From the NCBI GenBank assembly GCA_951406725.2, contig OX597818.1, positions 134,168,001 through 134,232,000 on the forward strand: a stretch of 64,000 nucleotides of DNA. The letters are read 5' to 3'. The position numbers were made by a program, and so were the translations under genes. This document shows positions 2,700 to 60,369 of the stretch, one piece after another. Position 1 is the stretch's first letter. The number at the start of each line of letters is the position of its first letter. This stretch comes from Octopus vulgaris (lineage: Eukaryota). Below the pieces are notes generated by a model. It had not been told where the DNA came from. It did no database searches and saw nothing but the letters and a program-made list of their open reading frames with translations.

Positions 2700-3705
2700 C
2701 TCATTATATAATAAATGATTAATCAAAATATTATTATAATTAATAATTAAAATATTTGAATGTCTTACTAAATTTATGGCAACATCTTAAAGTTAAATTC
2801 TCATTAAAGTTCAATAAAATTAATTTAGAAGTAATTATAAAATATAATTCTTTGGGGGCAAAGATCACAAGTAGAATTACCAATATTATATGATGGTGCA
2901 TAACTAATAATAAACCACTTTAAATCATATGTAATATTGTTATCCTTTAAATTCCAAATGTATTTACTAAGGATTAGTAGAATTACATTTTTTTCTATAT
3001 TTAAAGGGTGGCTATAAAATCTAGATTTCCAACTAGTAGCAGAAGAACCAATATGCCAATACTTATGATGTCTAGTTACTTTACACTGATATACTATATT
3101 CTTCTTTAAACACTGATTTCCTAAAAGGCATCAAGTTTTTTTGTTTTTTTTTTACACAATTACACATGGATTTCTTCACTTTTAGATAGTTATAAGAATT
3201 TCTTCAAGCACCTGACTGTAAAATAGGTGATAAGGTTGGATTATAATTATTATTATTAATAGAATTAATATTAATACGAAGTAAAAGACCTACTATATTA
3301 TCAGCATTTTGCCCAATTATAGAATCTAGACCTTGTTCTGAATGATTATCAATAACATTAATTTCACTATACATATTATCAGTTCTACAATTATTTATAG
3401 ATTTAAAATTTAGATATTCTCTAATTCTCTGTTTATTTTGTGCTGCAATAATCTCAGCTAAATTTCTAGTGGTTGAACATGAAAACTTAACACTATGTCT
3501 ATTAAATAAATTCTCATATTTTCTTGAAGATGGAAAATACCTATCTAGCACCGCAAAGAATTTATGAGGGATATTAGAAGCTATTGAATATGAAAATGGA
3601 GCATTATGTCATATAATGCTTGTTGAGCTATTATTCTTATTATTTCTATAAACTTTTTTGTCAATATTACTTTTATTAAAATTGGGTTGTTTTCTATTAT
3701 AATTT
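2700..3705 (-). mobile_element. Penelope-like element (Naiad-like) ORF remnant: linker plus GIY-YIG endonuclease
   Basis: Minus-strand translation gives HNAPFSYSIASNIPHKFFAVLDRYFP...LFNRHSVKFSCSTTRNLAEII, then CNC...CLLGNQCLKKNIVYQCKVT...HIGSSATSWKSRFYSH. Frameshifted and contains stops. Confidence 0.75.
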
Positions 3706-6124: not shown

Positions 6125-7356
6125 TAATTACAAATCTATTCCATCCAATACACTTGTCTCTCCTCTTCATTATCCATTCTGTGTCTTCCTTTCCATAATC
6201 CACACTAACTACTAATACCAATCCTTCATCTCCTGAATATTATCTTTCTTCAAGTCCTGTTCTGCATATAGTTTCCCTGAAGATGTTGACTTTTAGATCA
6301 AGTGAGATTTAACATGGTACATACTCTTTAGCTCATCACAAACTTATGCTGTTCAATAAAACATTTGGTCTCTATTTTAAAGAGGGTAGGAATTTTTCTT
6401 TAAGATCTTACCTACTGAAAGAAACCCGTCGTGTGTGTGTGTATGTGTGATGTGTCTGCCCAATCACCCAACTGCTTGACCAATAATGTTGGTTTGTTTA
6501 CAGCCCTGTAACTTAACAGTTGTGTGTGTGTATCTATGTTTCCTCCTCCTCACTACTTGACAACCTGTGTTGGTTTGTTTATGTCCCTTCAACTCTGTAA
6601 TTAGGTAAAAAAAAACCCAACAGAATACATATCAGACTTAAAAAAAAATTATAAGTAGTGGGGTCAATTTGTTTCACTAAACCTTCCAAGGTAATGCTCC
6701 AGCATGGCCGCAATACAATTCCTGAAAAGATTAAAAGATAAAGAATCCAGTTATTGAAATTTGCAAAAAAAACTTCACCATGAAAAGAAAACTAATTCTA
6801 GCAACATAGAGAATGGTATTTGTAGTAATGGATTCTGATTCTATATGTGAAGAGGTTGTACAAAATCTATATGCTGATAAGCAATTTTTTAACTCGAACA
6901 GAGTATTCCACATCAACCCACCAGAAAATAACTGATGCTAGTAATGAGGATAAAATGATAAAAATTGCTGAATTTTTATTCTATCAAAAAAATGTAAAAA
7001 TATGAACCTTTATGAGTTTTATTTTAGCTGATATTTTACTCAAAAGTTACCAGGTAGCTATTTCTAAGATATGTATTAGGTAGAAATTTGAATAAAGTGT
7101 TTTCATTAGATGATGCGATGTCTGTAATGGTAGATTGTTTATCGACATTCAATGAACTACAAATAAAATATTTTGATCTTTAATTAATTTTACAATAGAT
7201 GTAGAGCTTCTGTCATGTTTTTCAAAATTTTGACAAAAATGTACTTGTTTTTATTCTTTTATCTTTGTCTGAAATGTTTTTCTTTCCTTATTGACTTCTT
7301 CAGAGACAGCTGGGTACTTGACCCATGGAACCTTTCAGCTACGAAGATGCATAGTT

Positions 7357-8952
7357 ATGGCCGAACCAGAAAGCTTCAGATTAAATTTATCAGACTCTAA
7401 CAAATTTTTAGGTAATAATAATGATGACAATGATGACGATGATGACGACGATGATGATGATGATATCCGAAGTGTTTGCAGTCAGTTAAATGATGATCAA
7501 GACACTCATAGAACTTTGGATGACTCTATAACTCACTCTCAAAGAAAACCTGATTTAAGCTCTGGTGATTATGAAAGAAAAATAGAAGGGAACTTGTTAG
7601 AAGCCCATTCTGATAGATCTGAAAATTCAAAATCTTTATATTCAAGAAAGAGTTCCAATAAAAATATGGCAACAGTCCAACGTGGTTTAGAAAAGATTCC
7701 TAATATGTACAATATTCATAGAGAAGAAATGGTAGAACTGGTTCAGGAACAAGTTTATCAGAGAGAACTACAACAACGAATTTCTCACAATGAAAATGTG
7801 GACGCCAGATTTTCCTTCCAAAACCACCCAATGAAAGATACCAACGACGATGAATGTGATGATAGGTCTGAAAATAGAAATGGTAGTTATGAAGATCTTT
7901 ATGATTCTCTTGAAGCAAATGGCCAATATAAAGAAGAAGAAGAAGAAGAAGAAGGTAATAATGAAATCAAAACTTCTCAAAGTAAATTTGATGATCGTTT
8001 GGATCAATTCTACTTGAAGAGTCCTCAGAAAGAAAATAGAGTTTTGGGACCCATAAAAGGGGACCATGAGATTAGTGTTCAGAAATGGTCTGAGGAACAA
8101 CTATTCAATGAGTTTAAAAAGATAGCTGATGGGTATGATGAAAACAGTGTAGGAATGCATCATCAACAATCACCCAGACCCAGTTTGGAAACAAGTAATA
8201 ACTACTGGCAACTAAATTCAAATAATAAAAGCACAAAACATAGAACATATTCAGGTAAAGAGAACATAGACTATTTACCTTTGGTTAGAAAACCAAATGG
8301 TCCCTCAAAGCCCTCAATGAACTATGTGGAATTCAATAAATTCAATTATGATAAACCTATTAAGAACCAATCTTACAAAGACTTACATTCTCAAAGAAAA
8401 TATAGCTCTAAACCAGAAAGTTTTCATCGAAACAGCAGTTCAGGAAGAAGCGAACCTGCACTAAGTCATCAAGAAATAACAAGGCCTTTACTTCAGAAAA
8501 AACCAGCTTCTGCTGAGGATCTGTGGAGAAAGCGCTCCACACAACTTGTCCATGAACTAGAGCGCAAGTTACCACCAGTTGGGAAGCTTCAAAAATTTCC
8601 TAGTGACAGTAAAGTCAACTATCAGACTACTAAACCTTACCATTTACAACCATTGAAGCCAATTCCTCCCCCAGCTTCACAATCACCGAGGGATATTTAT
8701 GGGGGTAATGCTCCATTGTACCAGACTAAAGTCATTGATTTGGATCCGATTTCTAAGGACTTTCTCACAGACGATGGTCAACGCATAAGTGTTGACATCA
8801 ACTTGAAGCTGCTTTCTCCACCAGCTTCAACTCGTTACCATCATGCTGATGGTATGCAAACTTTTGGATTTCCACCTCCAGATAGCAACTATAAAGTCTT
8901 CCCAAAAATGGCAGATTATCAAAATATGGATGAAGTTGCCAATTATGAAAAG
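7357..8952 (+). CDS. JHY: JHY (C11orf63)-like protein, large N-terminal coding exon; start codon uncertain
   Basis: 563-codon open frame in AT-rich DNA. Acceptor ttcttcag ends at 7303, first in-frame ATG is at 7357 (MAEPESF), donor is AAG|GTAAGA at 8952/8953, phase 0, compatible with the next exon. The frame is open from 7304, so an upstream coding exon is possible. The protein is low-complexity with poly-Asp and poly-Glu runs. Confidence 0.8.
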
Positions 8953-8988
8953 GTAAGAATTATTTTTCCATTTGTTTCTTGACATGGT

Positions 8989-13719: not shown

Positions 13720-14700
13720 ATACAAGATAAGTGTACATAAAGGAATGTACATAAAAAAGTGTACATAAAAAAGTAATGTTGTATAATAAGTAGAATATGT
13801 ATAAAAGAGAATATAAATACAAGTAAATATAAATATAAGTATAAATTAGATCTTACAGCTGTTTTGGCCATGTCGATAATTATGTCTCATTTTACCAATA
13901 TTAACCCTTTATGGTTGGTCAATATATAGATATAAATGAGACATTAACAAAAATATCACAAGACCTCTTCGGAGATTATGTAATATAACTCAGTCTACAT
14001 ATATACCCACATGGGTGTGGGTGTGTACCCACAATACAACATATATATATATATACATATGAGTGCATATACTCACACTCCTATACATATAAAAATATAC
14101 ACTTACATAATGATATAAATAAATAATATAAATTAGTAAACATATATATGTGTTCCACATTCAATGTCTCAGTTTTTCGACTTAATACTGTGATAATAAA
14201 CATACACAGATTAATACCTAGATGCAAATATACATAGTCAATAGTACATTATATTACTTCATAATAGTTTCTAAAGTGTCATTAAAGTTAGTATCAATGA
14301 TAACATTAATGGTATTGACAACGATAATGATACTAACTTTAATGATACTTTAGAAACTATTATGAAGTAATATAATGTACTATTGACTATGTATATTTAC
14401 ATCTAGGTATTTTTATATTTAACCCTATAGTCTCTTATGTGGTGGTTTAATAAAGTATGTGATTGAGTATTATCTGGTAATTGATATTTGATTTAGATGT
14501 ATTTCTCCATTTTCTTATCTTGTATTAGTAATTTGCGGTAAATCATTTTACCTTTGCCCATATAATACAGTAAATGAATTGATTGCATCGCAATCATTAA
14601 CATTTATGTATTAACTTTGTTGGGTACTTCACTAGCAGTATATTGGATATACGTTATCCCATAGAGGGTTGCATTTACAACCCCTATCTCAATTTGTATA
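13720..14700 (-). mobile_element. Penelope-like pseudo-LTR remnant with hammerhead motif and long palindrome
   Basis: AT-rich segment containing the degenerate hammerhead (13848-13977) and an inverted repeat with about 85-bp arms (14213-14411). Confidence 0.4.
13848..13977 (-). ncRNA. Degenerate type I hammerhead ribozyme motif
   Basis: Minus strand: AAUCU CCGAAGA GGUC [long hairpin] GGCC AAAA CAGCUG UA AGAUC. Palindromic stem III CAGCUG. The core carries U4>C and G12>A changes. Confidence 0.55.
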
Positions 14701-14726
14701 TATATTATATATATGTATATATATAT

Positions 14727-15772
14727 ATAAGGGACTAAAGCCATCTGAATATGGCTAGGGACAGGGCAGGGTGGTGGGGGTGTTACTGTTGCATTTAGCC
14801 CCAGGCGAACATCGACGTCACCAGAAAGGCTCGACACCGTCACGGTGCCCTTAACCTGCAAAGGGAGGTAATTCCCCGATGAAGCGGAAACCACACACGG
14901 ACCATGGTTTCAAGGTGTATTGCCTATCGTCGGCATGTGGTAGGCTTCCGCTTCCTCGACGAATCCTCACTCTGCAGGATATTCATATATAGATTTTCAA
15001 GCAAAATACATTTGCTGATTTCGAAAATCTGTTCGAAAGCAATAATAATTCTCTAAAAGAGATATAGACAGTAACTGCTCGATAACATAAGGGACTAAAG
15101 CCATCTGAATATGGCTAGGGACAGGGCAGGGTGGTGGGGGTGTTACTGTTGCATTTAGCCCCAGGCGAACATCGACGTCACCAGAAAGGCTCGACACCGT
15201 CACGGTGCCCTTAACCTGCAAAGGGAGGTAATTCCCCGATGAAGCGGAAACCACACACGGACCATGGTTTCAAGGTGTATTGCCTATCGTCGGCGTGTGG
15301 TAGGCTTCACCCCCACCACCCTGCCCTGTCCCTAGCCATATTTAGATGGCTTTAGTCCCTTATGTTATCGAGCAGTTACTGTCTATATCTCTTTTAGAGA
15401 ATTATTATTGCTTTCGAACAGATTTTCGAAATCAGCAAATGTATTTTGCTTGAAAATCTATATATGAATATCCTGCAGAGTGAGGATTCGTCGAGGAAGC
15501 GGAAGCCTACCACACGCCGACGATAGGCAATACACCTTGAAACCATGGTCCGTGTGTGGTTTCCGCTTCATCGAGGAATTACCTCCCTTTGCAGGTTAAG
15601 GGCACCGTGACGGTGTCGAGCCTTTCTGGTGACGTCGATGTTCGCCTGGGGCTAAATGCAACAGTAACACCCCCACCACCCTGCCCTGTCCCTAGCCATA
15701 TTCAGATGGCTTTAGTCCCTTATGTTATCGAGCAGTTACTGTCTATATCTCTTTTAGAGAATTATTATTGCT
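14727..15772. repeat. 360-bp unit in tandem (14727-15308) and inverted tandem (15309-15772) arrangement
   Basis: Exact 360-bp period (14731/15091 and 15309/15669), near-identical copies, flanked by (TA)n on both sides. Confidence 0.95.
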
Positions 15773-16178
15773 ATATATATATATATATATATATATGAAT
15801 ATATATATGTATATATATGAATATATATATGTATATATATGAGTATATATATGTATATATATATATATATGAGTATATATATGTATATATATATATATGA
15901 ATATATATATGTATATATATGAATATATATATGTATATATATTATATATATGTATATATATATATGTATATATATATATGTATATATATATGTGTGTGTG
16001 TATATGTGTGTGTGTGTATGTGTGTGTGTGTATATATATATATATGCGTATATATATATGTGTGCGTGAGAGTGTATATATGTCTGTGTGTGTGTGTATA
16101 TATATATGTATGTATACATACATATATATATATGTATGTATGTATGTATACATATATATATATGTATGTATATGTATG

Positions 16179-16217
<39 letters not shown>

Positions 16218-16299
16218 GTATGTATATATATGTATGTATATGTATGTATATGTATGTATATATATGTATGTATATGTATGTATATATATGTATGTATAT

Positions 16300-16341
<42 letters not shown>

Positions 16342-16343
16342 CT

Positions 16344-17203
16344 TAACCAGCTATCTTGGTTGAAGGAACAATTCTGAAGATAGTAGACAAGTTTGTCTAC
16401 CTGGGCAGCACACTCAGCCATTCTTGCTCCTTGGATGAGGAAATATCTTTCAGGTTGCAGAGAGCAACTAATTCCTTCCGGTTTCTTCAGTCTCATGTCT
16501 GGTCCCAACATGGCATCGCAAGGAGAACAAAAGTTGCTGTGTACCGTGCTTGTGTACTCACGTCGCTTCTCTACTCATGTGAGACATGGACTCTGTACAA
16601 ACGTCAGGTAAGGGTCCTTGAACATTTTCATCAGAAATGTCTCAGATACATTCTCAATGTTGGCTGGACCTCAAACATTCCAGACACACAGATCCTGAGG
16701 CCAGCTGATATCTTGATTATTGAGGCGATGGTACACAAGCACCGGTTGCATTGGACTGGACACCTTATTAGAATGGAGGATAGAAGGATTCCTAAGCAGA
16801 TGCTCTATGGAGAACTTGTGAATGGAAGGAGACTCCAGCAGAAACCAAGGCTGCGATTTAAGGACTGTGTCAAGTCCTCGTTAAAGGCTTTTGATATGCA
16901 GGACACTGACTGGGAGAACAATGCCTGTCATCGCCACAGATGGAGGAAGCAGGTTAAGGAGGGGATCGACACTTTTGAGAAAGCACGTATCCAGCATGAA
17001 GAACTTAAGTGAGCTGCGCGAAAGCGCACGGCTCGTATAGTGAATGGGGAGAGCTTGGTCTGCAATGTTTGCAGTCATGTATGCTTGTCAAGAGCAGGGC
17101 TCATTAGCCACCAACGGAGCCGCAAATGCAAAATATAAGCTAGTCCTAGAGCGCACAATGTTCCTGAAGGTCGGCAATGGTCTTGTTCGGTCACGAGTGG
17201 ACG

Positions 17204-26128: not shown

Positions 26129-26398
26129 TTTTTCCGGAGTTCTGAATTACTGAAGAGAAAAGATATTGACACAGGTGAAGGAAATTCAGGGAATTTCCTG
26201 AACAATAGTTTGCATGGATCTGATGAGAGATTACTGAAAACTGAGGATGATACCAGTTATGCGAGCCGATACCAGAAGATGCGCAATGCAGACTTTAAGT
26301 ATAAAGTGTACACAGTTGATGATTACAGAAAAATGCAGAAAGAAGTGAAGTTAGGAAGACTCGGACCTGATCTTGATAGTGAGAACTTGAAAGAAAAG
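26129..26398 (+). CDS. JHY: JHY-like coding exon 2 (FFRSSELL...YKVYTVDDYRKMQKEVKLGRLGPDLDSENLKEK)
   Basis: Acceptor ttcatag, donor AAG|GTGAGA, 270 nt, phase 0/0. The YK.YT..DY...VKLG.LGPD motif matches the recalled JHY C-terminal domain. Confidence 0.9.
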
Positions 26399-27952
26399 GT
26401 GAGATCTGAATTTCTAAAATTATTTATGTACATCTAAACACATCCAAACACATACACACACATCATTATCATCGTTTAACGTCTGTTTTCCATGCTAGCA
26501 TGGGTTGAACAGTTCGACCGGGGTCTGGGAAGCCAGGAGGCTGCACCAGGCTCCAGTCTGATCTGACAGTGTTTCTACAGCTGGATGCCCTTCCTAACGC
26601 CAATCACTGCATGAGTGTAGTGGGTGCTTTTTATGTGCCACCGGCACAGGTGCCAGGGGAGGCTGGCAGCAGTCATGATCGGTTGGTGCTTTTTATGTGC
26701 CACCAGCACAGAAGATAGTCAAGGCGGCGCTGGCATCGGCCACATTCAGATGGTGCTTTACACACATACATATAATGTTCGTATGGTGCTTTACACACAT
26801 ACATATAATGTTCGTATGGTGCTTTACACATATATATATATAAACATGTGCACATATTTAAACACACACACACACGCAACTACAAGTAGATTTGATAAAC
26901 TGCTATTCCACATATACATGTTGTCAGAGTTTATATTTTGCTTCATGGGGTGAAGTGGATTCAGGATGAATCTCTTCCTGAATTGGACAGTTGTCTATTA
27001 TTGAAGTTATCATTCCTAAATGATCTGATACCCATTGTCAGCAATGACAAGATAGATAAAAATAACAATCTCTGAACTATAATGAAATGCTTGTAGTGGA
27101 TTTGAACCAAGGTCCTTGAGAGTAAGAGGACCAGTATCTTATCTATTTAACCATCCAGCATTTATTACTCAAATATTTCTGCACACTCACACATGATCAC
27201 ACAATGTATCCAAGGCCATTAAAAACTATACTTTTCTGAAGAATTCTAATAGTACTGAATCATATCCAGAGTCGTTTTTTACTATTTTACCAGAATTAAT
27301 CATTAAGTAAATGATTCTTCTTTGCTATTAATGTAATTTTATCAATTAAAATTCCTTGTCTCCTTACAACATTTGGAAGTAGGTTAGCAATGGCATTACC
27401 AATGATTTATAGGTGACAAGAAATTGGATTTTGTAGTAGTCATGCTATTCTCAGTGACATCTGCAAGATTAATTAAAAGAACTAGATTTGATTCATCTAA
27501 GCTCCGGCGTCTGGCGACGGACTTGGTAAACACCCACAAAGTTATCAACCACCTCACCAACAACAACACTGAACACCTTTTTGATCTCCGTGTGTCTAAC
27601 ACACGTGGACATGCCTACAAAGTCAGAAAACAACACAGCTCCCATGACTTTCGGAAACATTTTTTCACGCTCAGAGTTGCTGAAGCATGGAATAAACTGC
27701 CTGCGTCAGTTGTTGACTGCCATGACACTGCATCCTTTAAGGCCCTCATGCTTTCCGAAATCCGCCGAAACTACACCTGATTATATATACACTTTAGATG
27801 AGTTGTAGTGCACCTGAGCACTGTACACAATGTTTTTATTATTATATTATTATATAATATATCTTACTCTCTGAATATAGATGAAGTGAACTATTATAAT
27901 GTCTATGAATTGTGAATTAACTTTGTCATCAAGTTTTAAATGTTGCTTTCAG

Positions 27953-28093
27953 CTTGAGAAACGTCAAAGACAAGCAGAATATGCTCGCAGAGTTCACGAA
28001 GAAAATAAAACATCACTCAGTTCCAAACCGTTAGCTCCTCCCCCTTGTCCACCACAGTCATTTACAAAAGAGCAGGAAAACAGGAGAAAAATG
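27953..28093 (+). CDS. JHY: JHY-like coding exon 3 (LEKRQRQAEYARRVHEENK...QENRRKM)
   Basis: Acceptor tgctttcag, donor ATG|GTAAAT, 141 nt, phase 0/0. Q.EYA..V.E.N motif of the JHY domain. Confidence 0.9.
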
Positions 28094-28143
28094 GTAAATA
28101 TTACATATGTGTGTGTTTATATATATAAATATATATGTGTGTG

Positions 28144-28183
<40 letters not shown>

Positions 28184-28227
28184 AATTATTTAGTGATTTA
28201 CAACAGAATGTGAAAAGAGACAATGAT

Positions 28228-44683: not shown

Positions 44684-45638
44684 GAAATTTGTAGTTGAGT
44701 GCCTTAACTTGCATACGCCTTAAACGTATTTACTGTATTGTTTTATAATTATTTCTGTTGTACATCACAATAAAATGAGCGAAGGTTTAAGCGCTCCATA
44801 TAACCACCACTCATCAGTTTTGTATCTTTTGGAATTTTCAGAAAATTCTTGCGAATTTGTCCAACACATGAGAATTCATACGATTATTCCTGATGCGTAT
44901 ATTTACTCTTTACTCTTTTACTTGTTTCAGTCATTTGACTGCGGCCATGCTGGAGCACCGCCTTTAGTCGAGCAACTCGACCCCGGGACTTATTCTTTTG
45001 GTAAGCCCAGTACTTATTCTATCGGTCTCTTTTTGCCGAACCGCTAAGTGATGGGGACGTAAACACACCAGCATCGGTTGTCAAGCAATGCTAGGGGAAC
45101 AAACACAGACACACAAACACACACACATACATATACATATATACGACAGGCTTCTTTCAGTTTCCGTCTACCAAATCCACTCACAAGGCATTGGTCGGCC
45201 CGGGGCTATGCCCAAGATGCCATGCAGTGGGACTGAACCCGGAACTATGTGGTTGTTTAGCAAGCTACTTACCACACAGCCACTCCTGCGCCTTATGTGC
45301 GTGTGTTTTAATTTAAGGTTACGAATATAATAAAATAACGATAAATAAATATCATTTTAGTGCGGTTGCTGTTCTAGAAGGCACATGAGGGAGGGAGAAG
45401 ACATTTAAAAACATCTTAAAGTCTCCTTTCCATTGCTCTAGTGTTTGTGATAGAGAAAAAATTGGTAAATCACAACCAAAACATAGAAATTCTAACTTTC
45501 GTCAGACAGCTATTCGGCAAGTCCAAAACATTTCGAATTAACGAGTTTTTATCAATACCCAATCATAGTTTAAAAATTTAGGCGCTAAGCGCCAAAATTT
45601 ATTTTACGGAAGTAAACTGAACAATTATTCAACATTAA

Positions 45639-46037
45639 TCTTTATATATAAAAGTCAAGTTGTGTGTGTGTCTCCTACGATTTAGATTCCTAACTACTCC
45701 CACATTTTGCAGTGCAGTTTAACCAAAACCTGGTATCTTATAGTCGTGATTCATATCGAGCCCTTCTGGGTATTAGCGCGCGTCCACGATGAGTCTACGA
45801 TTTAAAAAAAAAATTATCATCAATTTTTTTTCGATTTTAATGCATTTTTTCGCTATTATATAAGGGAAGTAACTCTCTAAAAATATCTACGATGAGTCAA
45901 CGATTTTAAAACAAATTTACCATAATTTTTTTCCATTTTTGATGCATTTTTTTGCTAGTTTTTGGCTATAACTCTCTAAAAATGCTTATATAGTTATTTC
46001 CCTTACAAACCCGAGCAACGCCGGGCGATACTGCTAG
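45639..46037 (+). mobile_element. Non-autonomous Helitron
   Basis: A|TC start, subterminal hairpin CCCGAGCAACGCCGGG, CTAG|T end, no TSD. Confidence 0.85.
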
Positions 46038-46143
46038 TTGTATATAAAAAAAAAAAAGTGGGGTCGGATATACTTTTTAACACTAGCTAATTATACTAGC
46101 TATCAACTTAATTATCAACGAAGGACACATGGTAGGTACTCAC

Positions 46144-46309: not shown

Positions 46310-47093
46310 GACTACTAAAAGTCATCGATATCAGAGACACCGCTTAACGGCTCTCAACTAAATAATGACTTCAAAAATTTTGTTCCGGGTATTATTTATC
46401 GTTGTTAAATTTCCTGCTGTCTTTCCTGCTACTGGTAATGTTGTTGTTTAGCCCCATGTCAACCGTGACTGAGCAAATCAATGATCAAACGAATTCCATC
46501 TATGCTTAACCTGCTAGGGTCGTTTTAACAGCATTAAAGGCCTCTAACAACCAAATAATACGTAGATTAGCTTTGGGCCTCCATTGTGTCCATGAATTGA
46601 CGATCGAGGTCGACTTTGCCTTTCATCCTTTCGGGGTCGATAATTTAAAGTACCAGTTACGCACTGGAGTCGATGTAATCGACTTAATACCTATGTTTGT
46701 CCCCTCTGTGTTTAGCCCCTTGTGGGTAATAAAGAAATAGATATTTAGGTCTATTATCTAATATAGGAACTTGTTAAATTTTTCGAAACACTACCACTTG
46801 AAGTTTTTCAAATTTTCACAAAATTATTTTCAAATAATGTACTTCTGATGCAGTTTTGCCTGCTGATAGCGAAAATTGCATTTATTGTTTCTATAAATAA
46901 GTAATAAAGAAATTACAAGCATTGAAAGTTATGTAATTTTAGCCCGTTGGAAGCGTCCTTTGCCAATAAATCAGAAGTCACAAGAGTTGTCATGGAAATC
47001 AGCAAAGACAAATTAAGACAAGAAAGATGAAACCTTTACGTAGACCCAACATGTTAGAAGTAGTAGCCGAATCTTCCTTAAATTATACCTTAA

Positions 47094-47996
47094 CTAGCAG
47101 TATCGCCCGGCGTTGCTCGGATTTGTAAGGGAAATAACTATATAAGCATTTTTAGAGATGTAAAGTATAATAGCCATCTCAATATGGCTAACCACAAAGG
47201 GGGGTGGGGGTGTTACTGTAGCATTTTACGTTCTGAGATTTAATAAATTTTTAGAGAGTTACTTCCCTTATAAATGCCAAAAATGCATTAAAAATGTGAA
47301 AAATTGATGTAAATTTTTTTTTTAATCGTAGACTCATCGTAGACGCGCGCTAATACCCAGAAGGGCTCGATATGAATCACGACTATAAGATACCCGGTTT
47401 TGGTTAAACTGCACCGCAAAATGTGGGAGTAGTTAGGAATCTAAATCGTAGGAGACAGACAGCACACAACCTTACTTTTATATATAAAGACTAGCAGTAT
47501 CGCCCGGCGTTGCTCGGGTTTGTAAGGGTATTAACTATATAAGCATTTTTAGAGAGTTACTTCCCTTATAAATTCGGGCTTTCTTAGCCATTTTTGTTTT
47601 GGTGTCTTCAAGCCATGAAGTCGTTGTTCTAAAAGAACGCTGGTTTCCTTCACAACGCATTACGACGTTGATTTCTTTACACTCCCTTCCCCACAGCTTC
47701 ACGAGGGAGGGAAGGGGGAGAAGCAAACAGGTGCAACTGTGAGCGTGGACGCCAACTCCGCCGCCATCGACACACGATGCATTTTATGCATTAAAATGGA
47801 ATTAAAAATGATGTTAAATTATTTTTAAAATCGTAGACTCATCGTTGACGCGCGCTAATAGCCAGACGGGCTCGATATGAATCACGACTATAAGATACCC
47901 GAATTTGGTTAAACTGCACCGCAAAATGTGGGAGGAGTTAGGAATCTAAATCGAAGGGGACAGACACTCACACAACTACAGTTTTATATATATAGA
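47094..47996 (-). mobile_element. Two head-to-tail non-autonomous Helitrons (47491-47996 and 47094-47490)
   Basis: Same termini as 45639-46037. The junction at 47490/47491 reads CTAG|TC on the minus strand. Confidence 0.85.
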
Positions 47997-55985: not shown

Positions 55986-57899
55986 GATGTCCACTTTCTA
56001 TGCTGGTATGGGCTGGACTGTTTGACAGGATTTGGCAAGCAGCAAGGCTACATTCGGCTTCAAAGTCAGCTTTGGCATGGTTTCTATGGCTGGATGCCCT
56101 TCCTAATGCAAACCACTTTATACAGTGAAGAGGGTGCATTTTTCATGCCACTAACTCTAACGAGGTTGCCAAGTGATTTGCAAGATAAAAAAAAAAAAAA
56201 AAAACAGGAAAAAGCTTTCTGTATTAAATAAGGAGTATTTGAGATGGGAAGGTAGCTTTATGCTGAATGTTGAGAGTCTAAAGAGAGAGGGACAAGCATA
56301 GGTATATAGGTGGTTCACCATCTCCTACACCAGGACCCTCATAGTTAGGAAGCATGAGGGTTCCGGTTGATCCGAATCAATGGAACAGCCTGCTCATGAA
56401 ATTAACGTGTAAGTGGCTGAGCACTCCACAGACACGTGCACCCTTAACGTAGTTCTCGGGGATATTCAGCGTGACACAGAAAGTGACAAGGCCGGCCCTT
56501 TGAAATACAGGTACAACAGAAACAGGAAGTAAGAGTGAAAGAAAGTTGTGGTGAAAGAGTACAGCAGGGATCACCACCATCCCCTGCCGGAGCCTCGTAG
56601 AGCTTTTTAGGTGTTTTCGCTCAATAAACACTCACAATGCCCAGTCTGGGAATCGAAACCGTGATCCTATGACCGCGAGTCCACAGGGCCATTGCGCCTC
56701 CACTACCCTCATAGTGCATGTCTTGGCTTTATATTGTTTAGCATCATGCTACATCTGGATGTAAGTTCCCACTCCAACTCCATCAAAGCAGCTTCCAACA
56801 CTGCTGTAAGATAGAGGGATAACAGTGCTGGATCACTCTTGTTTAATTCCATTTGTCACCTCAATACTCACTTGAGGTATTGCTATTTTCTACTACAAAA
56901 TTCAATTGTGCAGGGACCTAACCAAGTTACTCTCTCTTTACTCTTTTACTTGTTTCAGTCATTTGACTGCGGCCATGCTGGAGCACCACCTTTAATCGAG
57001 CAACTCAACCCCGGGACTTATTCTTTGTAAGCCCAGAACTTATTCTATCGGTCTCTTTTGCCGAACCGCTAAGTGACAGGGACATAAACACACCAGCATT
57101 GGTTGTCAAGCAATACTAGGGGGACAAACACAGACACACAAACACACACGCACATATATATATATACATATATACGACGGGCTTCTTTCAGTTTCCGTCT
57201 ACCAAATCCACTCACAAGGCTTTGGTCGGCCCGAGGCTATAGTAGAAGACACTTGCCCAAGATGCCACGCAGTGGGACTGAACCCGAAACCATGTGGTTG
57301 GTAAGCAAGCTACTTACCACACAGCCACTCCTGCGCCTGTTGGTGAACCTTCTTAAGGAACATGGCTGTCCTTGAAGGTTCAAAGTCTTGTGAATGAATT
57401 TGGTAGATGGAAGCTGAAAGAAACCTGTCATGTGTGTGTGTTGTGCACGTGTGCATGTGTTTTCTACCAGTGCTTGACAACCAATGCTGGTTTGTTTATG
57501 TCCAGTTGGTTCAGCAAAACAGACTGATAGAATAGGAAACAAGATTTAAAAAATATGTAATGGGGACGATTTGTTAGACTAAAACCCTTCAAGGTGGTGC
57601 CTCCAGTATGGTCACAATCCAATGACTGAAACAGGCAAAAGGTAAACGAGAGTGCCTTTGACAAATATAGGATTTAAGTTAGGGTGGAGCTGGCACCGAA
57701 CATAAAAGTAATAGCTTTGATTAAACAAAGTTAAGAACAATTGATTGAATACAATGATTTCGTTTCTAAAGTACTCTTTCAATTGAATTCTGGTATTTTC
57801 CTCTCCTAAAATTTAAACACAATCCTGCCTAGACCAGCCCAATTTACGACAGAAAACTGAATTTGGGTCATCACCGATTTTAAAAGTAAACACTACAAT

Positions 57900-58679
57900 A
57901 TGGCTGCCAACATCCAGTCGATGTGTCAATTCTGGAAAGATTTCGATTTAACCGAATTACAGAAGAATTTAGACACAACAGCTACAGTAATTGCTAACAG
58001 ACAAGATGAAAGTGACGCTAGTCGTAAAAAACTTGTCGATTTGAGTCGAGATTTTAAAAAGAACACCCCGGAAGATATACGGAAGGTAGTCGCGCCTTTG
58101 TTGCGTAGTTTTCAAAGCGAAATTGATAATCTCTCTAAGAGGAGTAAATTCGGTGAAACTGCCTTTCTCTCTATCTATAGGAAACTTATTGACTTACCTG
58201 ATCCCGTACCGATACTAGAACATGCCATCAGCATCCAGAAAAAAGCTCAGAAAGTTCAAGATTTTGAAATTGAAAACAAACAACTTCGGGAAACTCTGAC
58301 GGATTACAACCACGAATTTGCTGAGGTGAAAAATCAAGAAGTGACAATAAAACAACTGAGAGAGAAATTAAAAGAATATGAAGAGCGTATGGAAGCTACG
58401 GTGGAAATCAGGGTTAAGGAGAAAGAGAAGGAAATTCAGAAGACTTTTGCTGAAAAAGAACGCCAACTGCAAGAAACTCAGTTGGCCGTGGCTAAAAAAC
58501 TTGGAGAAGCTGAACAAAAAGTGTCCATCCTTCGCAGTAACTTAGAGTCTGTCCAGTCGGAGTTGTTCGACGTTAAGGCCAAATACGACGAGGCAACGGC
58601 TGCAAAATCCGATGAAACTGATATGCTTATGGCAGACCTGGAGAGGGCAAATGAAAGAGCAGTGGCGGTTGAACGACAG
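57900..58679 (+). CDS. CUX1: CUX1/CASP (Cut-like homeobox / golgin CASP) shared N-terminal coiled-coil, first coding exon; gene continues beyond the window
   Basis: MAANIQSMCQFWKDFDLTELQKNLDTTATVIANRQDESDASRKKL...KNTPED.RK.VAPLL.SFQ.EID.LSKRSK...EFAEVKNQEVTIK closely matches the recalled human CUX1/CASP N-terminus. Donor CAG|GTTAGT at 58679/58680, 260 codons. Confidence 0.93.
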
Positions 58680-60369
58680 GTTAGTAGTATGTTATTAGGG
58701 CGATCTTTCGTCTCTAGCGAAATCTCTTTCTTTCTTTCACACATTACTCTGTCTCTTCACACACACTAACAGAAGCACTTCACTTACACAACATACTGTC
58801 TGTCTCCCACACCCCATCAAACACACACATGTACATCAATGCTTCCCATGCATGGTAACTTCAAAAGAACTTCCCTCGTCATACAATCGCTTTCTCTTAG
58901 TCTCTTTCGCTCTCATTACTTCAAAAGTTCCCGCAAGCCCATATGTAAAAAAAAAAATATTTTTACGGAAATCGACGGAAAGGTCTACTAGAGACGAAAG
59001 ATTGCCTATTATTAGATTGACACGTATACACCAAAGTGTCTCTATTTTCCCTTTATTTGATAACGCATCCGGACATAAGATACGTTTGTTTATTATTACA
59101 TGTCACAACATCACATCACATATATACCCGCGCACAAAGACGCGAAGAGAAGAATAATCGTAAAAGCAATATATACAGAAAGGTTACAGGTGAACGATTG
59201 ATTACAGGTGAACAGCCTTCCAGAGCTGTTAGCGCTGATCGAGCAGACATCATTATTGTCATCGGGTTCCACAACTGTAATCATTCGGACCTTTTCTCAG
59301 ACACTACAATTTCGGATTAATGTGTCTTTATCTAAAACTGTTGAGTGTTATTTGAGCAGATTAAGGCACCTTTGTTGGCTCACATGTTTCTGTATAGATC
59401 CTGGTGAAGCAGGAAAAAAAACCTACTAGGCGTGTATTGTTTTTTGTAAATAAAGAGTGGGACTGATTTAGTAATGGGAAAAGGGTAATGTGCTGTAGCT
59501 TTCGTAGTGTACACCTAACAGAAACTGTCGATTATCATCGTAATCATCATTCCTATAGGTATTTAAATGAACGGTGATGGTCTTTGTGGTATTATATAGA
59601 CTGATGAAAAGGCGTAAATAAAGTCGAACAATTTAATGTGAGAAATATAAATAAATGTGGCCAGTAAAGAACAACAGGAAAATATAATGTCCAAACGGGG
59701 AGGCATTTCAAATAGGTAAACAAATATTGGCATGGCAGGTAAAAATCTCCATTCAAAGTAAAGGATGTTAGAAGCAAAAGATTGAAAATCTGTTGGACTC
59801 AATGTGATAAAGATTTCAATTTCATTAGTGTATGCATACAATGAACGACGTTATATGGCCCAGGGTGTGGTGGTTGATGCCTTTTTTCCTATTCCTTTGG
59901 TACCATGGAAATATTTTGTTGTTGACGTAGGGGGGGGGGGGTCATCGAAGAGATGTCTGATATATTGTCTCAGCCGTTCGACTTAAATTGGATTTTGTGG
60001 CATAGTTTCCGGATTAGGGAGTATTCATTTTTTTATGTAACCCCTAAGGGTAATTCCGAATACTAGTTCTGTGGTTGTACAACACAAGTAGGCCTTTATT
60101 GTTGCACGCACATAGAGCAATAGGGATCAGTTTATGCCAGTGGTTAGCATTATGATTTGTGAACGAATGAAATGTCAAGGAAGAAATCAGTGACAAACTT
60201 AATCACAAAACTTTTAATGACGTAATCACAATTAATTTGGCCAGGCGGTGCAAAGCATGTAGTTAAGGCATTATTGATAGTATCAAATCACACGAATGCA
60301 CTTTTTTTTTTATCACTGTGATATGTTTTTGTTATTATTTTATACTTTATAATTGTTAAGAAAACTTGT

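Follow-up and report, generated by a model that had tools for sequence, protein, structure and literature searches.

Short non-coding repeats that carry hammerhead ribozymes are a kind of element already known from mussels, corals, and salamanders. In the mussel Mytilus galloprovincialis, tandem 350-390-bp hammerhead repeats make circular RNA molecules (Cervera and de la Pena, 2020; PMC7229834), and a 2026 preprint reports that animal retrozymes are derived from the pseudo-LTRs of Penelope elements (bioRxiv 10.64898/2026.07.22.740005), in which hammerheads have been located (PMC4209133; PMC8557442). The metazoan type I hammerhead is described as having a helix I of 6 bp, a helix II of 4 bp, and a helix III of 1-2 bp with a palindromic loop, a build that cuts best as a dimer (PMC4209133). 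An axolotl retrozyme has U·U at the base of its helix II (PMC7229834), and U10.1-U11.1 and weak palindromic stems III have been noted in natural hammerheads (PMC3088659).

Penelope-like elements form partial tandems with an inverted, 5'-truncated copy and a 30-40-bp tail at one end, and they use (TA)n targets; the paper that sets out these traits names the origin of the tandem and inverted structures and of the microsatellite bias as unsolved (Craig et al., 2021; PMC8557442). Octopus vulgaris is described as having 31 recently active Penelope-like families, and the word "ribozyme" is absent from the available text of that 2026 repeat annotation (PMC13282606). The literature searched, which covers part of the field, contains no report of a cephalopod retrozyme or of an octopus hammerhead element.

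Here we describe a repeat at positions 14727-15772 of a 64-kb window (the whole stretch of Octopus vulgaris DNA that was analysed). Since the kind of element is known, the element itself is no surprise. In our assessment, this locus quite probably represents a single, young insertion of a metazoan non-LTR retrozyme that is non-coding and non-autonomous and whose hammerhead core is a variant.

Structure of the locus

The element is built from a 360-bp unit with 46.7% G+C, whose position 1 is set at 14727. In block A (14727-15308, 582 nt), 1.62 units stand in direct order and read unit 1>360>222. Block B (15308-15772, 465 nt) contains 1.29 units as the reverse complement of unit 312>360, 1>360, and 1>56; the two blocks have one C (15308) in common. 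The initial annotation had proposed about 1.6 direct and 1.3 inverted units of exact 360-bp period, with few mismatches and with (TA)n on both sides, and each of these points was borne out. Only three single-base differences occur among the copies (14935, 15343, and 15574), and (TA)n-rich sequence extends over 14697-14729 on the left, as a target remnant that has an ATA microhomology with the element end, and over 15772-16341 on the right. Microhomologies are 3 nt at the left junction, 1 nt at the middle, and 1 nt at the right. The strand that bears the hammerhead motif described below is the minus strand in block A, where it runs right to left with its 3' end at the left TA tract, and the plus strand in block B, where it runs left to right with its 3' end at the right TA tract; thus, the two blocks are directed outward, with their 3' ends next to the TA tracts and their 5' ends joined at 15308.

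The inverted arms form two pairs, of which the first (14727-15142 and 15308-15723) matches over 416 nt at 99% and the second (15038-15308 and 15502-15772) spans 271 nt. Alignment of the arms and the unit leaves 49 nt (unit 360>312; 15724-15772, plus strand) past the terminal inverted arm on the right, an extension that the left end lacks and that is similar to the one-sided tail of Penelope-like insertions. The four block ends fall at unit positions 1, 222, 56, and 312, so that all breakpoints differ, as the initial annotation had stated; the outer ends, however, are not scattered, because they lie 49 nt apart on the unit circle. All four ends lie away from the predicted ribozyme cut site (unit 174/173), which is intact in each of its three copies.

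The element lacks an ORF longer than 101 aa, an RT plus GIY-YIG ORF, and, in its layout, an LTR pair. Neither a pol III B box (≤1 mismatch), as had been noted earlier, nor AATAAA is present on either strand. The 360-bp unit lies within all of the limits taken here for retrozymes, namely a short tandem unit of ~150-450 bp, G+C below 50%, and no coding capacity.

A G-quadruplex-like motif of four runs occurs on the cDNA strand at 14758-14780 (plus strand), at 15118-15140, and on the minus strand of block B. The inner end of block B (unit 56) is two bases past this motif, and the inner end of block A is at the outer stem of the hammerhead; the motif and the stem could be stop sites for reverse transcriptase. 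An AT-rich, near-perfect palindrome of ~200 bp (14213-14411) lies 300 bases left of the element and has no second copy in the window.

A 569-aa ORF (7273-8982, plus strand) precedes the element, and exon-like ORFs at 26129 and 27964 follow it. The ORF at 27964 gave a weak Pfam match to JHY (27890-28210; E 0.019), which falls short of the cut-off. If the element lies in a JHY intron, as presumed, the block B hammerhead would be on the sense strand of the pre-mRNA. In the predicted fold of 14727-15772, 45 of the 46 bases of the block B hammerhead are paired with the antisense copy in block A, and, on this model, the inversion would mask the block B ribozyme by an antisense copy transcribed just before it. 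Of the duplex in the JHY pre-mRNA that the initial annotation had proposed, the long duplex is therefore predicted by folding, and the JHY label depends on the match at E 0.019. We infer that the 416-bp duplex could also be a substrate for A-to-I editing. Elsewhere in the window, the end of a 221-aa LINE-like ORF, which we take to be RTE-like, occupies 16347-17012 (plus strand) directly after the right TA tract and has no Pfam match, and a CUX1/CASP N-terminal exon or gene at 57861-58769 (plus strand) forms one uninterrupted frame of 302 aa (Pfam CUX1_N; E 3e-43).

Hammerhead motif and folding of the unit

The informative strand of the unit is its minus strand, which carries a type I hammerhead motif that the initial annotation missed. 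A type I descriptor search of the 64-kb window returned four sites, three of which are in the element, at 14933 (minus strand), 15293 (minus strand), and 15517 (plus strand); the fourth, outside the element, is weak. The outer stem of the motif is 7 bp long and stem I is 6 bp, with an internal loop between them; U·U opens stem II, and the short stem III has an eight-base palindrome, for which a self-duplex of -11.2 kcal/mol is calculated. This build agrees with the metazoan type I form described in PMC4209133. The core reads CCGAYGA, with C instead of U at position 4 in three of three copies, and the remaining core positions match CUGANGA, GAAA, and UH. We class the hammerhead as a variant rather than a canonical type I motif because this one core position (C4) differs. 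Among 3000 dinucleotide-shuffled units, two matched the 6-bp stem I together with the observed core, and ten matched when any one-mismatch core was allowed. We take the loop sequences to resemble those of the Schistosoma hammerhead.

Copy 1 (14886-14949, minus strand) has core position C3 at 14933, a predicted cut at 14900/14899, and one U·G pair in stem I that results from the private change at 14935. Copy 2 (15246-15308, minus strand) has its core at 15293, a predicted cut at 15260/15259, and an outer stem clipped by one base at the inversion junction. Copy 3 (15501-15564, plus strand) has an outer stem at 15501-15507/15558-15564, an internal loop UAC/U, and stem I at 15511-15516/15551-15556, followed inward by the core at 15517-15523 (C at position 4), stem II at 15524-15538, GAAA at 15539-15542, the palindromic stem III, and C17 at 15550. 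Block A thus holds two hammerheads in tandem, one unit apart, which implies that a minus-strand transcript of this block could release a new 360-nt monomer (15259-14900) by double self-cleavage at the positions given by the hammerhead search.

An Rfam search of the window, which the initial annotation had suggested as a check, returned no hammerhead family at the gathering score or at E values up to 10; the matches in the window up to that E value were only TA-driven or hairpin-driven chance matches. A look-alike on the plus strand of the unit (CCGAUGA...GAAA) lacks stem I and was therefore not accepted as a hammerhead, and visual inspection also led us to reject a SECIS element there.

On both strands, the unit forms a more stable fold than its shuffled versions (z -3.61 for plus and z -5.95 for minus; 0 of 100 shuffles as good). 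A central 132-nt hairpin has a z of -9.45 and forms a long, imperfect stem with the hammerhead at its tip (15468-15599, plus strand; also 14851-14982, minus strand). The extensive internal pairing reported in the initial annotation is consistent with these values, except that the two hairpins that it described as enclosed are replaced by an unbranched stem in the minimum-energy fold of the plus strand.

In the unit circle, the active hammerhead fold is calculated to be 8.2 kcal/mol above the minimum (-110.0 versus -118.2), which on this model may mean that the circle is blocked from cutting or that the motif is dead. A U4C change in a viroid "considerably decreases activity in vitro" and yet sufficed in vivo (PMC3088659). 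In the octopus unit, C at this core position is likely to slow the ribozyme without killing it. Eight of nine predicted Xenopus retrozymes are reported not to have cut in vitro (bioRxiv 10.64898/2026.07.22.740005).

The repeat family and a shared 58-nt module

The unit was present in 20 of the 24 listed sequencing runs (10 studies, four organism codes; contigs only, with no run recorded as RNA). Four runs picked by their likeness to this locus (X1, X2, X5, and X14) were aligned to one exact unit, with variants listed down to a limit of 5%; X2 is probably genomic, and X5 is RNA by guess only. X1, X5, and X14, from three studies, each contain one 390-nt contig that closes as a 360-nt cycle (in X5 as 358 plus 2 letters between), a form that can equally come from tandem DNA, since contigs do not separate a circle from tandem DNA. 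X2 contains 1514 contigs on the unit, with a summed depth of 1.3e5 to 1.3e6 that is not a copy number, tandem joints, and several common alleles. One of the loose ends in X2 starts at 15141.

Across the four runs, 13 variant sites were listed, two of which (14929 and 14935) are inside the 46-nt hammerhead motif at frequencies of at least 5%. Position 14929 is the free core position N7 and varies in 58% of the X2 depth and in X14, and at 14935 all four runs have the base that gives a Watson-Crick pair. At core position 4 (14932), no variant was among those listed in the four runs, which implies that, within the resolution of a 5% limit on contigs, C4 is the norm for the family; likewise, no variant was listed at core positions other than N7. 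Unit position 239 is T in 98% of the X2 depth and in X1, X5, and X14, and is C in both blocks of this locus (14965 and 15485). The alleles fall into two sets, with X1 and X5 near this locus and X14 having the set commoner in X2, in runs that were picked by likeness to the locus.

Stem pairing was compared at nine variant sites, where the best partner was kept in four of nine on the hammerhead strand and in three of nine on the other strand; the other four of the 13 sites were excluded, and almost all of their signal came from diverged X1 contigs. The tested sites showed one-sided changes only, with no two-sided compensatory change among these very close relatives.

Scans of other collections gave 0 matches in one metagenome scan, five in another, all five by chance, with unit similarity of at most 19-31 nt, and 0 matches in viral contigs. 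Six diverged X1 contigs that align to 15006-15191 of the window share parts of the half of the unit without the hammerhead and then continue into other sequence, pointing to what may be related repeat families.

A 58-nt module consisting of a small hairpin and a G-rich run is present at 14739-14796 (plus strand) and again at 15099-15156 and 15654-15711. It matches 47172-47226 at 83% (E 8e-11), so that the likeness of about 55 nt to a Helitron noted in the initial annotation is real. The matching stretch belongs to one of three non-autonomous Helitron-like copies at 45636-46039 (minus strand), 47090-47495 (plus strand), and 47490-47996 (plus strand), two of which are in tandem. Two of these copies carry different inserts of ~95 nt between short direct repeats, and the module sits in the variable insert of copy 47090-47495 only; 45636-46039 and 47490-47996 lack it. 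Diverged X1 contigs carry the module in other contexts, which implies that several repeat families share it.

Origin of the insertion and relation to known systems

If the locus is a retrozyme insertion, as we favor, tandem copies would be transcribed on the minus strand of the unit, and the hammerheads, which probably dimerize via the palindromic stem III, would cut out 360-nt monomers for ligation into circles. An endonuclease/reverse transcriptase of Penelope-like, probably Neptune, type would nick both strands of the (TA)n tract, and because (TA)n is identical on both strands, two nicks would yield two like primers. Each 3' end would prime cDNA synthesis on the RNA, at sites 49 nt apart, with copying continuing for 1.3 and 1.6 rounds, and the two cDNA ends would join through one shared base. 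The outcome would be a head-to-head, tail-out, greater-than-unit insertion without a visible target duplication.

Since both blocks share the rare C at unit position 239, they imply one template lineage and, most simply, one event. Moreover, as no end coincides with the cut site and each block is longer than one unit, the blocks imply copying from a ligated circle or from an uncut multimer. The circular template envisaged in the initial annotation is supported in its retrozyme-like form by a hammerhead in every unit, the position of all ends away from the cut site, and 360-nt cycles in three runs. Twin priming on a single circle would leave the same layout as reverse transcription of a linear multimer or of two RNA molecules, and all of the insertion traits, including the tandem and inverted arrangement with a one-sided tail in a microsatellite, come from this single locus.

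A more specific proposal, which we advance only tentatively, is that this cephalopod retrozyme family is abundant and has moved recently, that its core is fixed for U4C, giving a damped ribozyme that cuts as a dimer in the multimer, spares the circle, and is unseen by standard CUGANGA screens and by Rfam, and that at this locus a Penelope-type reverse transcriptase primed two times on a single circular RNA, using both strands at one (TA)n nick. If this were true, double priming on one circular RNA would explain the inverted, tailed insertions of Penelope-like elements. A family-wide core change would imply that hammerhead censuses based on the canonical core undercount animal retrozymes, and a 360-nt passenger with many copies would make breakpoint statistics and an in vitro template easy to obtain.

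The presumed partner class is present in the window, as a decayed Penelope-like remnant at 2828-3608 (minus strand). It consists of an RT thumb piece and then a GIY-YIG-like endonuclease piece, which align in order to a 723-aa RT-endonuclease protein. No hammerhead was found near this remnant, and the unit has no detectable DNA similarity to it. As it is both decayed and without such similarity, the remnant is not the shown partner of the element. Pfam gave no match for the remnant or for five of its relatives, and a "longer" protein search gave none either; in the Atlas, the endonuclease piece was assigned to a GIY-YIG cluster at 0.93 (42% of members) and the thumb piece to nothing.

We considered whether the unit is instead an ex-retrozyme with a dead ribozyme that spreads as satellite-like DNA, inverted here by a template switch in DNA replication beside the TA tract. 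The apparent fixation of C4, an active fold that is not the minimum-energy fold, and the tandem joints and very high summed depth of X2 (again, not a copy number) are each in line with this explanation, and template switching could likewise account for the microhomologies of 1-3 nt at the junctions. However, a lone insertion of 1 kb within a TA tract, its two RNA 3' ends facing outward and its tail on one side only, is in keeping with Penelope-type integration; between the arms there are just three base differences, and no variant is listed at the core positions except N7. On balance, a satellite-like origin seems unlikely.

Less probable still is that the unit represents no more than an autonomous Penelope-like element's 3' pseudo-LTR, left as 5'-truncated partial tandems and having no circular life of its own. 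The two readings are close, since animal retrozymes are reported to be pseudo-LTR derivatives (bioRxiv 10.64898/2026.07.22.740005), and the insertion layout is that of Penelope, whose pseudo-LTRs contain hammerheads (PMC4209133; PMC8557442). Random truncation would vary the period, though, and a period of 360 recurs as a closed cycle in three runs from three studies. In addition, the element has no ORF above 101 aa, its hammerhead is of the canonical two-loop type and not of the minimal pseudo-LTR type, and no obvious ORF is reached among the six X2 loose ends listed, with 81 more beyond the listing.

An assembly or library fold-back could have created the inverted block from a real unit, and no strand-change joint was listed in the four runs, where a junction from a single locus would fall below the 5% limit in a family this deep and where 1526 pieces and 81 loose ends lay outside the listing. 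We regard such an artefact as very improbable: the flanks beyond the element are not mirrored, the gene-like ORFs on both sides stay on the plus strand, and block B has two private differences and the 49-nt tail that is missing at the left end.

Fixed ends with CTAG and a 3' hairpin are characteristic of Helitrons. A rolling-circle DNA repeat of Helitron origin would explain the 58 nt shared at 83% with copy 47090-47495, rolling-circle DNA being the other circular template offered in the initial annotation. This origin can be set aside almost entirely, as that match is internal and confined to a variable insert that the other copies lack, the unit has neither Helitron end, and the hammerhead would be left unexplained.

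The initial annotation had suggested that the element could be undescribed, which is too strong in view of the published mussel hammerhead repeats (PMC7229834) and Penelope traits (PMC8557442). As in the metazoan non-LTR retrozymes described from mussel and axolotl (HHR_Amex2), the unit is non-coding, tandem, and 360 bp long with 47% G+C and one type I hammerhead per unit (PMC7229834), and it further resembles them in its strong self-pairing, the U·U at the base of helix II, and its many copies. Unlike the retrozymes in that account, it has C for U at core position 4 across the family, and it shows an inverted block and a (TA)n target here; the words "inverted" and "microsatellite" are absent from the main text of PMC7229834. 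The available text of that study gives no cephalopod example, and cleavage and circular RNA, demonstrated there, are predicted from the sequence here.

With Penelope-like elements of the Neptune/Naiad type, the locus shares the partial tandem with an inverted, 5'-truncated copy and a tail at one end (PMC8557442; PMC4209133), as well as a (TA)n target without a visible duplication and a type I hammerhead with a palindromic helix III. It differs from these elements, as described, in having no RT or endonuclease ORF, a fixed period of 360 nt, and a canonical rather than minimal hammerhead build, and its tail is 49 nt, compared to the 30-40 published for Penelope-like elements (PMC8557442). Finally, the core change is the same as in a natural U4C hammerhead of a plant viroid (cited in Perreault et al., 2011; PMC3088659). 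In the viroid, as reported there, U4C is a rare variant, whereas in the octopus unit it is apparently the family norm in an animal genome.
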